This document shows, piece by piece, positions 1,536 to 6,741 of a DNA stretch of 22,909 bases. The first letter of the stretch is position 1. The number at the start of each line of letters is the position of its first letter. The DNA is from Escherichia coli (lineage in GTDB: Bacteria > Pseudomonadota > Gammaproteobacteria > Enterobacterales > Enterobacteriaceae), in NCBI RefSeq assembly GCF_003334305.1, contig NZ_QOWS01000039.1; one strand, written 5' to 3'. Made by a program: the position numbers and the translations under genes. A model generated the notes under the pieces. The model was not told the origin of the DNA, did not search any database, and saw nothing but the letters and a program-made list of their open reading frames with translations.

Positions 1536-1610
1536 CCCGGTGTGTGCAATATACGAAAAAAAAGCCCGTACTTTCGTACGGGCTCTTCTTTAAATATGGC
1601 GGTGAGGGGG
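1536..1610. repeat. 75-bp direct repeat, copy 1, containing a terminator-like hairpin
   Basis: Copy 1 (1536-1610) and copy 2 (1717-1791) match at 74 of 75 positions at an offset of 181 bp. Hairpin GCCCGTAC-TTTC-GTACGGGC at 1563-1582 is preceded on the plus strand by A8 (1555-1562), i.e. followed by T8 on the minus strand. Confidence 0.85.
1555..1582 (-). terminator. Putative rho-independent terminator (minus-strand orientation) inside repeat copy 1
   Basis: 8-bp GC-rich stem with a 4-nt loop followed by a T8 run on the minus strand; on the plus strand only a weak TCTTCTTT tract follows. Confidence 0.45.
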
Positions 1611-1716
1611 GGATTGACTCGCTTCGCTCGCCCTGCGGGCAGCCCGCTCACTGCGTTCACGGTCTGTCCAACTGGCTGTCGCCAGTTGTCGAACCCCGGT
1701 CGGGGCTTCTCATCCC

Positions 1717-1791
1717 CCCGGTGTGTGCAATATACGAAAAAAAAGCCCGTACTTTCGTACGAGCTCTTCTTTAAATATGGCGGTGAGGGGG
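1717..1791. repeat. 75-bp direct repeat, copy 2 (one mismatch, inside the hairpin stem)
   Basis: Same sequence as 1536-1610 except GTACGAGC versus GTACGGGC in the right stem arm. Sits about 160 bp upstream of the integrase start. Confidence 0.85.
1736..1763 (-). terminator. Putative rho-independent terminator (minus-strand orientation) inside repeat copy 2
   Basis: Same hairpin plus T8 as copy 1, with one stem mismatch. Confidence 0.4.
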
Positions 1792-3340: not shown

Positions 3341-5158
3341 TCACTCCTGCTGAGACTGAATTATTCCTAGTGCGTCATAAATCAGTCTTCTGCGTAGTTT
3401 ATTGTTTTTATCTGCACCATATAACATAAATATATTTTCAACTTTTTCTTCAGGTGTTCTGAGATAATGGATAAGAAAGGTTATCATTCCAACACAATGG
3501 AATAAAGTGAATCCATCAAACAGGCTTATCAGGTTTCCTTTTTTTTCCCGTGTTGTAAGTATTTTTTCGCGGGTAAGAATATTTGCCAGTTCATGGGGGG
3601 CTGATATGTTTCTGCTGTCTATAATGTCATTTATTTTACCAAGGGCTATATCAACTTCCTGTAATAGGTTATTTATCATAGCTGAGTGAATGTTATTGGT
3701 TTCATGTTCCTGACAGTTTATGAACTTATAAATCATTGAGTTATACAGAAATATTACTCTTCCTAATAAATATGTGTTTGTGTCATTTTGAAGACAGGAC
3801 TCTGGGTATTCGTGATCCAGTGAAATAAGGTTAATGGACTCGCCCTGATAAGTCATAAAATAATTGATGTCATTTAATAATGCTCGGATATTTACATGAT
3901 TTTTACTGAATTTTATTTTAAATGCTATCTTTAGTATAGCAAACGCGGCAATGATAAATCCAAAAGGTAATTTCTCATAGTTCAGTTTATTGATGGTGCG
4001 ATGAACACTTTCAGTCTTTCCTGAAGTAAGTTGTCTCAAACAGTTAACAAATTCTGTATAGCCATTTAAGACATAATGGCATGAAGAATCTTTTAAAGAG
4101 TTTTCTATGTTTTGTAATGTGACGCCGTTGTTCAATGTATAAATGTAACCGCCAAAGACAATGTTTTCAATCTCAACGACACAATTTATTGTTTTTTGTT
4201 CAGGATAAAGATAAATATCAGAAATACTATAGTCTCGTATTGCGTCAATGGCATCCCACGATAATGCACTGTCAATTTTCAGTGTATAAAATGGTGAGTT
4301 CTCATTAGGAAAGTAATATATGTATTTGTTCAGTATATTCATTACATCTATTGGGTTGGTTAAATATAATAACTGGCATTCATATTCTGAAACTTCTCTT
4401 TCGCTTATCAGCATTTTATATAAAGTTGCCAGGGTGCTTGTTAATGAAGTTCGTCTTTCGAAAGCCAGTAATATAGTGAGATAATAACATGCAACCTGAA
4501 CTTTATCTAAGTCAGAAATTATTTTTTCCTTGTCTTCATTACTTAAATAAAGCAGATGTTTACAGGTTTCTTTGCATGTGTTGATAGTTGCGATAAGTTT
4601 TGTTTTTCCTGGTGTACTGTTTTTGCGAATATTACGAATGAATTCATATACGCCATCAAAGATATCTTTGAAATGCGCATTCGCTGGCGTGTATCCGGAT
4701 AAACATAACTTAACGTAATTTCGCAGATATGTCCTTGCAGCATGATATATATCATCCTCATTATCCGGTATCTGAGTGAGAAAAGAATGAATATGATAGT
4801 AAAATGCCATCTCATTATCCGGGCGATATGTGTTCCTGATGTCGAGTGCGAGAATCATTGGTACAATGTCATTAAAATATTTTTGTTTTATTATTTGATG
4901 TGTTTTGTCTGTAAAAACAGAATAGTGCATTAGCTTAACATAGAGATCTTCATATCTCCTAAATATAACTTTTCGTTGTTCTTTACTCAATACTTGTTCT
5001 TTATCAATAATGTTTATTAATTCATCAAACATGTCGCCCAGTGAATGTTGATGTGAGGAAAAATTTTTAATATTTCGGATGTCACGGCTATTCTGGTTTT
5101 TAGCCAGAACACCAAAACATGAAAAGACATCATACATTATAGTGATAAAATTATACAT
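3341..5158 (-). CDS. Hypothetical protein, 605 aa, AT-rich orphan cargo gene
   Basis: Single long ORF in a visibly AT-rich segment that contrasts with its neighbours. No catalytic or nucleotide-binding motif recognised by eye. Occupies the position that yfjH holds in CP4-57. Confidence 0.7.
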   Translation of the reverse strand: MYNFITIMYDVFSCFGVLAKNQNSRDIRNIKNFSSHQHSLGDMFDELINIIDKEQVLSKEQRKVIFRRYEDLYVKLMHYSVFTDKTHQIIKQKYFNDIVPMILALDIRNTYRPDNEMAFYYHIHSFLTQIPDNEDDIYHAARTYLRNYVKLCLSGYTPANAHFKDIFDGVYEFIRNIRKNSTPGKTKLIATINTCKETCKHLLYLSNEDKEKIISDLDKVQVACYYLTILLAFERRTSLTSTLATLYKMLISEREVSEYECQLLYLTNPIDVMNILNKYIYYFPNENSPFYTLKIDSALSWDAIDAIRDYSISDIYLYPEQKTINCVVEIENIVFGGYIYTLNNGVTLQNIENSLKDSSCHYVLNGYTEFVNCLRQLTSGKTESVHRTINKLNYEKLPFGFIIAAFAILKIAFKIKFSKNHVNIRALLNDINYFMTYQGESINLISLDHEYPESCLQNDTNTYLLGRVIFLYNSMIYKFINCQEHETNNIHSAMINNLLQEVDIALGKINDIIDSRNISAPHELANILTREKILTTREKKGNLISLFDGFTLFHCVGMITFLIHYLRTPEEKVENIFMLYGADKNNKLRRRLIYDALGIIQSQQE

Positions 5159-5298
5159 AACATTCTCCTTTTATTGCACTATATAAAATTTTAACATTAT
5201 ATCATTTTGCTTTTCTGTTAACTGATTTTCATTTTTGAATCAATATTTTCTGAACAGGGTAATAGTACACGTATTAACAGATTATGTCAGAAGGCCCC

Positions 5299-6061
5299 GG
5301 TGATGCCTTCTGACGATAGATTAATGTTGTATTCTATTGGTATCTGGAGACCATATGGCAACAGTTACAGTATATTCTCCCCGCTGTAATTCCTATAAAG
5401 TGTACCGTTATGATCACAGCACCTCAGATCATGAGCGTTTCCAGTGCTAATCCTGCAAACGTGTATTTCAACTGAATTACATCTACGAAACCCGAAAACC
5501 AGGCATTAAAGAGCAAATTGTTGAAATGGTTCATAACGGAGCCGGGGTTCGCGATAGCTCCAGAACGCTGAAGGTGGATATCAACACCGTCATTCTCACT
5601 TTAAAAAACGCTCACCACGTAAAGTAACCATATCTCCAGCCGCCAGTGTCGATGTGGCACTTATCTGTGAACTTGATGAACAATGGAGTTTTGTCGAAAA
5701 CAAAGCTCGTCAGCAGTGGCACTGGTACGCGTATAAGACCAAAGCTGACGGTGTGCTGGCTTACACTTTTGGTCCTCGCACTGATGAAACATGCCGTGAG
5801 TTGCCGGAATTCCTGAAGCCATTCTCCGCAGGCATGATAACCAGAGACAACCGGAGCAGTTATACCAGAGAAATGCCACAGGATAAGCATCTTGTCGGCA
5901 AGATATTTACCCGGCGCATTGAGCGCAACAATCTGACACTTCGTACTCACATCAAACGACCTGCCCGGAAAACGATTTGCTTTTTACGCTCCCTGGAAAT
6001 TCACGAAAAGCCATTGGTTCATTTATCGAAAACACATGTACTACTGACAGGAGTCATTACC
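5299..6061 (+). mobile_element. IS1-family insertion sequence, about 763 bp, probably defective
   Basis: Ends resemble the IS1 inverted repeats (left GGTGATGCCTTCTGACGATAG; right end ...CAGGAGTCATTACC). InsA-like and InsB-like frames are linked by the canonical A6C frameshift motif TTAAAAAAC at 5602-5609. The flanking 9-mers are not identical, so there is no clean target-site duplication. Confidence 0.75.
5355..5627 (+). pseudogene. insA: insA-like frame interrupted by an in-frame TAA
   Basis: ATG at 5355; in-frame TAA at 5448-5450 after MATVTVYSPRCNSYKVYRYDHSTSDHERFQC; downstream in the same frame ...KPGIKEQIVEMVHNGAGVRDSSRTLKVDINTVILTLKN resembles the InsA C-terminus. Confidence 0.55.
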
Positions 6062-6091
6062 AGGGCCTCTTTTGCTGTTTTTTTGCCATGA
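5654..6091 (+). CDS. insB: insB-like transposase frame of the IS1-family element
   Basis: Translation (ICELDEQWSFVENKARQQWHWYAYK...FTRRIERNNLTLRTHIKRPARKTICF...) parallels IS1 InsB as recalled from memory. It lies in the -1 frame relative to insA. The ORF reads 30 nt past the inferred right end of the element. Confidence 0.6.
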   Translation: MALICELDEQWSFVENKARQQWHWYAYKTKADGVLAYTFGPRTDETCRELPEFLKPFSAGMITRDNRSSYTREMPQDKHLVGKIFTRRIERNNLTLRTHIKRPARKTICFLRSLEIHEKPLVHLSKTHVLLTGVITRASFAVFLP

Positions 6092-6257
6092 ATGATAATG
6101 AGAATCGACAGCGATAAGGGAAAAGTAAAATAACACTAATGCTGTCGTTTTCTATCATATTGATTTTTAATTATTTATTGTCTTTTTTCTCAACCCATTT
6201 TTTTACGCAGACAAATTTACCCGGGGAATACAAACTGTAACGACAGTTCACCACACT

Positions 6258-6566
6258 ATGGGGGATAAAATGCCAGATCAATCCGGACACTGCAGGACTC
6301 CTTCACGCATCTTACGGATGCCTGAACTGAGCCAATTGTTAGGTATATCTCGTTCGACAATTTACGAAAAAATGAATCCGTTATCGAAATACTACGATGC
6401 AACCTTCCCCAGGCCGGTACGTCTTGGTAGTGGTTCTGTGGGCTGGCGTTCATCAGCTATTGACGAATGGCTTACTTTACATACTGTACCTGCCAGATCA
6501 GCAGTCAAAGGTGTTAATGACGAAGTGAGACATACGCTTTCTTCAGATATGACCATGAGCAGATAA
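6258..6566 (+). CDS. alpA: AlpA-family phage transcriptional regulator / excisionase-like DNA-binding protein
   Basis: RILRMPELSQLLGISRSTIYEKMNP...YDATFPRPVRLGSGSVGWRSSAIDEWL matches the AlpA signature (E. coli CP4-57 AlpA, recalled). The true start may be the ATG at 6270. Confidence 0.8.
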   Translation: MGDKMPDQSGHCRTPSRILRMPELSQLLGISRSTIYEKMNPLSKYYDATFPRPVRLGSGSVGWRSSAIDEWLTLHTVPARSAVKGVNDEVRHTLSSDMTMSR

Positions 6567-6741
6567 TTTTTTGTCATCACGTGATCACCTCAGGAGGAAA
6601 AAGAAGCATAAGAACAATTTAGCCAGAAGTTTAATTGATAAACAGAATTTCCAGCATTCATTGTTGAAAGAGCAGCTATTGTCGCTATTGTAGCGGTAAT
6701 TGCTGCTATAACCGAAACGTATTACGAAAAAGGAAGCATTT

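Follow-up and report, generated by a model that had tools for sequence, protein, structure and literature searches.

In a stretch of 22,909 nucleotides of Escherichia coli DNA (hereafter the window, that is, the whole stretch that was analysed), a segment resembling an insertion sequence lies between a 605-aa orphan gene and an alpA-like regulator. The question that it raises is what this segment is, how far it extends, which lesions disabled it and whether the island that carries it still makes any use of it. The preliminary description had taken it for a decayed IS1-family element at 5299-6091, with an interrupted insA, an intact frameshift site and no target-site duplication. By sequence comparison, the segment of the window from 5299 to 6061 is a full-length element of the IS1 family, 763 bp long and dead, which is called the relic below; its features and those of its neighbours are collected in Table 1.

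Table 1. Features of the relic and of its surroundings, in coordinates of the window
Feature	Coordinates	Strand	Basis or remark
RtT RNA, borderline Rfam match	1597-1733	-	46.3 bits against a gathering score of 45; flanked by ycdU and the integrase gene
605-aa orphan gene, directly left of the relic	3341-5158	-	32.5% GC; labelled 'membrane protein' in Sakai
Left flanking 8-mer AAGGCCCC, probable decayed target-site duplication	5291-5298	.	6/8 agreement with the right 8-mer
IS1-family relic, IS1N-like branch, full-length	5299-6061	+	End-to-end alignment to IS1N, 69.6% nt
IRL GGTGATGCCTTCTGACGATAGAT	5299-5321	+	Opens with the IS1-family GGnnnTG; agrees with the reverse-complemented right end at 15 of the first 21 positions
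insA remnant, 91 codons, zinc ribbon and HTH, interrupted	5355-5630	+	Translation; Pfam Zn_ribbon_InsA residues 1-35, HTH_Tnp_IS1 residues 42-85
TCT, Cys8 to Ser, first zinc-ligand cysteine gone	5376-5378	+	Cys8 nearly invariant in 16 relatives; L067 keeps TGT
TAA, insA codon 32, inside the second CxxC (C31-stop-S33-C34)	5448-5450	+	Alignment with relatives; common to window and 83972 lineages; 56/56 metagenome contigs
AAAAAAC, -1 frameshift motif, intact in the window lineage	5603-5609	+	A5604T breaks the run in the 83972/CFT073 lineage
insB' remnant, DDE domain, -1 frame, 3' end shifted twice	5606-6047	+	Pfam DDE_Tnp_IS1, E = 3e-58
A4 run, 1-bp deletion relative to the A5 of IS1N	6006-6009	+	Frameshift 17 codons before the insB' end; in all three island lineages
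A4 run, second 1-bp deletion relative to IS1N	6029-6032	+	Also in L067, minus one further base there
IRR, terminating in GGAGTCATTACC	6039-6061	+	Final 12 bases exactly as in the IRR of IS1A
Right flanking 8-mer AGGGCCTC, probable decayed target-site duplication	6062-6069	.	6/8 agreement with the left 8-mer
MkoA, 1656 aa	10677-15647	+	PADLOC full-length match, 2212 bits
MkoB, 478 aa, overlapping the MkoA ORF	15644-17080	+	PADLOC match, 503 bits

Extent, coding layout and target site

As criteria of the IS1 family we applied a length of about 740-1180 bp (768 bp being typical) and terminal inverted repeats opening with GGnnnTG. The relic agrees with both, with its 763 bp and with the tips GGTGATG in IRL and CATTACC in IRR (GGTAATG when read as the reverse complement), its outer letters being GGTGATGCC from 5299 and GGAGTCATTACC up to 6061. 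The two arms coincide at 15 of their first 21 positions, and both terminal inverted repeats are thus recognisable, as had been claimed. In a global alignment with IS1N taken from a plasmid of Shigella dysenteriae (L007, 244-1009, 766 bp), the relic is matched from the first to the last base at 69.6% identity, and its nucleotide identity with IS1A is 55%. Of the span given in the preliminary description, the start at 5299 was correct, whereas the end at 6091 was not, the true right boundary being 6061. In fact, this boundary was already implied by the right-hand 9-mer of that description, which sits at 6062-6070, and 6091 is the stop of an open reading frame (5654-6091) that, because of a frameshift, runs on through IRR into the flanking DNA.

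The start codon of insA is the ATG at 5355, and the slip site TTTAAAAAAC lies at 5600-5609. In particular, the -1 frame is open across the slip site and the homology to insB' carries on in this frame beyond it, so that the motif and the frame arrangement, both read from the sequence, reproduce the two-ORF layout of IS1, in which insA is followed by insB' through a -1 shift at A6C. The A6C motif is present and intact, as previously described, for the lineage of the window only. In IS1, InsA is a repressor that binds the ends of the element, the zinc ribbon being required for this binding, and the InsAB' transposase arises by -1 frameshifting at A6C (PMC12903888). In the conceptual InsAB' product of the relic, Pfam recovers Zn_ribbon_InsA (E = 8e-12), HTH_Tnp_IS1 (4e-20) and DDE_Tnp_IS1 (3e-58) in this order (PF03811, PF12759 and PF03400), so that the zinc ribbon and HTH of InsA and the IS1-type DDE domain are all represented. 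Moreover, the same product reaches 209 bits with the NCBIfam model NF033558, 'IS1 family transposase', the cut-off of which is 100 bits, and the alignment with intact relatives indicates that the catalytic residues D108, D165 and E190 are kept. Judged by these scores, the likeness of the relic to IS1 is far beyond chance.

The 9-mers that flank the element, GAAGGCCCC (5290-5298) and AGGGCCTCT (6062-6070), agree at three of nine positions and therefore differ, as had been noticed; the accompanying statement that there is no target-site duplication holds for exact 9-mers only. IS1 target duplications measure 8 or 9 bp (PMC12903888), and the two 8-mers abutting the relic agree at six of their eight positions. 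A match of this quality has a chance of 0.0055 among equally spaced position pairs of the window and of 0.003 in shuffled local flanks, that is, of about 0.005. The loss of 20% of the invariant residues of the protein (see below) corresponds to roughly 9-10% neutral change per site, which would predict about 1.5 mismatches in an 8-bp duplication; since two are seen, the mismatches fit decay, and the flanking 8-mers are probably the remains of an 8-bp target duplication. A decayed duplication also fits the view, already held in the preliminary description, that the insertion preceded later sequence change. However, the 8-mer is near-palindromic, with a GGCC core, and the direct-repeat argument is slightly weakened because this core makes the two flanks partly complementary to each other as well.

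Under an 8-bp duplication, the unoccupied site would be expected to read GTCAG-ARGGCCYC-TTTTGCTG. A blastn search with the joined flanks (336 bp) returned no record with contiguous flanks among 5426 E. coli genomes, and the exact pattern of left flank, 0 to 30 free letters and right flank was matched neither in metagenome contigs nor in 100,044 species genomes. As these searches found no uninterrupted target site, we infer the duplication from the two 8-mers. A scan of the insertion site detected no terminator or hairpin; the rejoined flanks fold only into a small GGCC hairpin, which is due to the near-palindromic 8-mer.

Lesions and lineage-wise decay

The in-frame TAA reported at insA codon 32 is indeed present (5448-5450). 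The possibility that this stop falls outside the real insA frame does not apply, since it aligns within the conserved C-R-[SD]-C of 16 intact relatives. The damage is more extensive, however, than the stop codon listed in the preliminary description, which had missed the replacement of Cys8 by Ser, the two single-base deletions at the 3' end of insB' and a large number of changes at conserved residues. As a consequence of the two deletions, the reading frame changes twice within the last ~17 codons of insB', which leaves the ancestral stop TGA (6045-6047) in the third frame. Furthermore, 14 intact relatives agree on a single residue in 121 alignment columns, 24 of which are altered in the relic; intact proteins subjected to the same column test show 0-9 changes, typically about two. 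With one stop and two frameshifts, the coding region does not have the integrity expected of a transposition-competent element. The window copy is predicted to make neither InsA nor the InsAB' transposase and, because these cannot be made, would be immobile in cis. The earlier reading of a decayed, probably immobile element is thus borne out by the stop, the frameshifts, the lost cysteine and, as shown below, the one fixed location. As regards its state of preservation, a relic that keeps its full length of 763 bp with ~10% decay and no large deletions is mildly unusual among bacterial pseudogenes.

The relics of the window/O157 type and of the 83972/CFT073/Nissle type differ by 23 substitutions and two indels (3.0%). 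Both of these common lineages carry the TAA, the change of Cys8 to Ser and the two 3' deletions. The 83972/CFT073 lineage has, in addition, a GT insertion after 5460, a 1-bp deletion at 6036 and the substitution A5604T; because the latter breaks the A6C run, the intact frameshift site is specific to the lineage of the window. A third and rarer lineage (L067-L070) was reached through homologues of the 605-aa gene, at 91-92% identity. L067 belongs to E. coli, its flanking phoH region being 99.3% identical to that of E. coli, and over 4950-6570 it is 92.5% identical to the window (about 7.5% apart). In the aligned copy of L067 (reverse complement), codon 32 is CGC (Arg) as in the intact relatives, Cys8 is kept and many residues that are mutated in the window retain the ancestral state. 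The private damage of L067 comprises a 13-bp deletion in insA, the loss of one IRL base and the motif SENW in the catalytic region. It shares both 3' A-run deletions with the other lineages, and the 3' end of its insB' lacks three single bases in all, a net shift of -3 that brings back the original terminal frame. The three lineages thus show differing private lesions, and each keeps ancestral residues that the others have lost.

Since L067 has an arginine codon at position 32, the TAA would be a secondary lesion of one clade. The preliminary description was right in naming it as an interruption of insA; as the founding lesion it does not stand, given the CGC codon and the separate 13-bp deletion of L067. 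On the alignments, the 3' frameshifts of insB' appear to be the only disabling lesions common to all known lineages, and these C-terminal frameshifts may, putatively, have abolished transposase activity on their own. For annotation, this is a warning that an element was not necessarily killed by the lesion that first catches the eye, which is the TAA in this case. A 35-mer pattern around codon 32, in which the codon itself was left free, had 56 matches in metagenomes, all of them with TAA, and none in species-representative genomes; the L067 type is undetectable by this pattern, which overlaps its 13-bp deletion.

The divergence of the relic between the two common lineages can be set against the synonymous divergence of the neighbouring genes, which amounts to 1.4% for int, 1.1% for the 605-aa gene, 1.5% for alpA and 4.5% for yfjI. 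As its 3.0% lies within this range of 1.1-4.5%, there is no sign of constraint on the relic. Selective constraint was accordingly rejected as a candidate, the divergence being no lower than that of the neighbours' synonymous sites. Within insB', the pN/pS ratio between the two common lineages is 0.47 (7 synonymous and 11 non-synonymous changes), a value that is not significantly below 1 by a hand estimate (binomial P ~0.1) and not exactly neutral either.

A separate observation concerns the distribution of these substitutions, as 18 of the 23 that distinguish the relics of the window and 83972 fall into 225 bp (5604-5828), where the divergence is ~8% compared with ~1% elsewhere in the element. 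When this interval was polarised with IS1N and a Moellerella IS1, a mixture of ancestral and derived states and no clean tract emerged in both lineages. Gene conversion from a live IS1 was rejected on these grounds, and the cluster may be a recombination mosaic.

Island context and competing explanations

An 871-bp query, consisting of the relic and its immediate flanks, found 1088 copies in 1034 of 5426 complete E. coli genomes, with a median of one copy per genome and one record in the 80-90% identity class. A separate search of the same collection with the flanks alone gave 1037 records and 2168 flank places, which is about twice the copy number. The order of the context is a tyrosine integrase, the 605-aa orphan gene on the minus strand, the relic, an alpA-like regulator and a yfjI-like gene, and it is identical in all inspected cases, namely O157 TR01, SpLE1 of Sakai, 83972, FCI5, YZ22PE106, JP538 and one record labelled 'plasmid'. 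The relic appears confined to this one context, and no unoccupied site appears in the collection. Its carriers include SpLE1 of O157 Sakai, CFT073, UTI89 and Nissle. The chromosomal sites of the island vary, the island adjoining ycdU, dgcT or a DUF2726 gene, so that the relic moves as part of the island backbone and not on its own.

As to the other contents of the island, neither NCBIfam nor PADLOC gave a match for the 605-aa gene. All of its homologues are at least 91% identical and belong to this island family wherever the context was checked, and between lineages the gene shows 13 non-synonymous and 4 synonymous changes, a roughly neutral-looking pattern. The equivalent of the RtT RNA is labelled 'RtT sRNA' by PGAP in another strain. 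ARAGORN detected no tRNA gene in the window, although the island family is usually described as tRNA-Ser associated. The cargo includes a type I Mokosh anti-phage system (10677-17080, plus strand), and the right end of the window (19463-22739, minus strand) encodes a PatB/MalY-type C-S lyase, a MalX-type PTS IIBC component and, as a fragment, a KbaY-type tagatose-bisphosphate aldolase, which may be either island cargo or chromosomal flank.

We consider that, with a probability of about 0.95, the segment is a dead and passively carried IS1N-like relic of one ancestral insertion, which decayed lineage by lineage. The ancestor would presumably have resembled IS1, with an InsA repressor, an InsAB' transposase obtained by -1 frameshifting and a target duplication of 8 or 9 bp. 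In an ancestral genomic island of E. coli, an IS1N-like element of this kind would have transposed once into the AT-rich, divergent intergenic region that separates the 605-aa orphan gene from alpA, not far from the integrase end of the island, and an 8-bp target duplication was probably made in the process. Function would then have been lost, the disabling lesions found in all lineages being the two single-base A-run deletions near the 3' end of insB', and the relic would afterwards have been carried passively, decaying at about the neutral rate, while the islands diverged from one another and came to occupy several sites in the chromosome. In this course, the lineage of the window would have acquired the change of Cys8 to Ser and the TAA at codon 32, that of 83972/CFT073 would also have gained the GT insertion and the A-to-T change that breaks the slip site, and the third lineage would have acquired the 13-bp deletion in insA. 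The sequences show the membership in the IS1 family, the lesions, the one fixed location and a decay that is specific to each lineage, whereas the order of the lesions, the 8-bp duplication and the absence of a present function are what we infer.

It might be supposed, instead, that the relic has been exapted, either by supplying the divergent genes, alpA and the 605-aa gene, with a promoter, an operator or a spacer or through a functional 145-aa product of ORF 5654-6091, a role that would account for its preservation at full length in every island. Each of the 1034 genomes and three lineages that differ by up to 7.5% retain it at full length, it occupies the divergent regulatory region directly upstream of alpA, and a consensus promoter-like site for the 605-aa gene (5290-5262) abuts IRL; the pN/pS of insB' (0.47) would also agree with a retained product. 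However, promoter-like matches are no commoner here than in shuffled sequence, and the relic has diverged by no less (3.0%) than the synonymous sites of its neighbours. The 3' end of the insB' ORF varies in frame and length among lineages, with products of 142-154 aa, radical changes have occurred at conserved residues in each lineage (for instance SDDW to RDNR or SENW in the catalytic region), and insertions of IS1A and IS3 into the relic are tolerated. We regard exaptation as improbable for these reasons. If it were true, the control region of SpLE1-type islands would include a dead insertion sequence as a working component; for instance, its ends or interior would couple alpA, an excision regulator, to the 605-aa gene, or a truncated InsB' protein would be made.

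It is very improbable that the element is still functional, with a working transposase obtained by readthrough of the TAA, or from a start downstream of it, followed by slippage at A6C. The intact A6C and open -1 frame of the window lineage and the retained D, D and E would allow for such recoding, but the stop lies within the zinc ribbon needed for end binding (PMC12903888), Cys8 is gone, 24 invariant residues are changed and the two further frameshifts remove the native C terminus. Moreover, the slip site is broken in one sister lineage and 13 bp are missing in the other, and there is exactly one copy per island, with no new location ever among the 5426 genomes. To the reading of the TAA and the frameshifts as sequencing or assembly errors in an intact insertion sequence we give practically no credence, even though both 1-bp deletions lie in error-prone homopolymer A runs and one database variant (P0068) is in frame through the first of them. 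The same TAA and A4 runs occur in hundreds of independent complete genomes obtained with different technologies, and the TAA is found in 56 of 56 metagenome contigs and in every sampled copy of the two common lineages; this recurrence refutes the error reading.

For the dead, passively carried relic, the preliminary description had left room for complementation in trans. Overproduced IS1 transposase moves otherwise immobile IS1 copies and cassettes flanked by inverted repeats (PMC12903888), and by analogy the mobilisation of the relic in trans is conceivable in principle. The ends of the relic differ widely from those of the resident IS1 types of E. coli, and no second location that would be a trace of such an event was found among the 5426 E. 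coli genomes.

In itself, the relic is of little import, as it was correctly recognised and is already flagged as a pseudogene. Its single fixed site and its independent decay in each lineage nevertheless make it a convenient neutral marker of ancestry for a large E. coli island family, by which we mean SpLE1/TAI of O157 and the serX-region islands of CFT073, UTI89, Nissle 1917 and 83972.

Comparison with known IS1 elements

The closest intact proteins among 5.8 billion are 66-73% identical to the conceptual product, and all of them are IS1 or IS1N transposases, from Enterobacter, Klebsiella, Cedecea, Pantoea, Pectobacterium and Shigella dysenteriae. The closer protein matches (85-99%) are all fragments of the same relic, for which one source uses the name 'putative IS1nuxi transposase', and a tblastn search against plasmids gave the same picture. 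The relic records an IS1N-like sub-lineage of its own, of which no living member turned up among the 5.8 billion proteins.

The closest intact branch is formed by IS1N (IS1 'nuxi', from Shigella dysenteriae) together with the relatives of Klebsiella, Enterobacter, Pantoea and Pectobacterium (66-73% amino acid and 70% nucleotide identity). IS1N resembles the relic in length (766 and 763 bp), in its GGTGATGCC ends, in the insA/insB' layout, in the presence of TTTAAAAAAC at the same position and in the three domains. Different from IS1N, the relic is dead (stop, frameshifts, lost cysteine), single-copy and restricted to one locus. In ISfinder, elements are treated as the same insertion sequence at about 95% amino acid or 90% nucleotide identity and above. 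With 69.6% nucleotide identity to IS1N and 66-69% amino acid identity to the IS1N transposases, the relic remains below this level, and on these values it is placed in an IS1N-like branch, too divergent to be an isoform of IS1N.

IS1A and the other IS1 elements of E. coli K-12 (768 bp) share the family, the architecture and an identical IRR tip GGAGTCATTACC with the relic, at 55% nucleotide identity in the case of IS1A. A live IS1A is found inside the IRL of the relic in JP538 (L002, 1575-2341), with a perfect 9-bp duplication GATAGATTA; this insertion gives the picture of a recent event, in contrast to the decayed relic. In ECE218 (L066), an IS3 truncates the relic after ~260 bp.

The relic itself is already known, being annotated as a pseudogene both in RefSeq ('IS1 family transposase; frameshifted; internal stop') and in O157:H7 Sakai, where it is ECs_1301 within SpLE1, and the copy in the window is an ordinary one. 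The literature yielded nothing specific to it, only general IS1 biology (PMC12903888). ECs_1301 is the same element, as the 871-bp query is 100% identical in Sakai and the neighbours are the same in the inspected annotated records, and the equivalent PGAP pseudogenes of ~1000 RefSeq genomes likewise correspond to the relic of the window. The Sakai annotation covers only the 438-bp insB' ORF, whereas the element is longer. Finally, the island of the window carries its Mokosh cargo further downstream, while the O157 islands that share the same left end differ in cargo.
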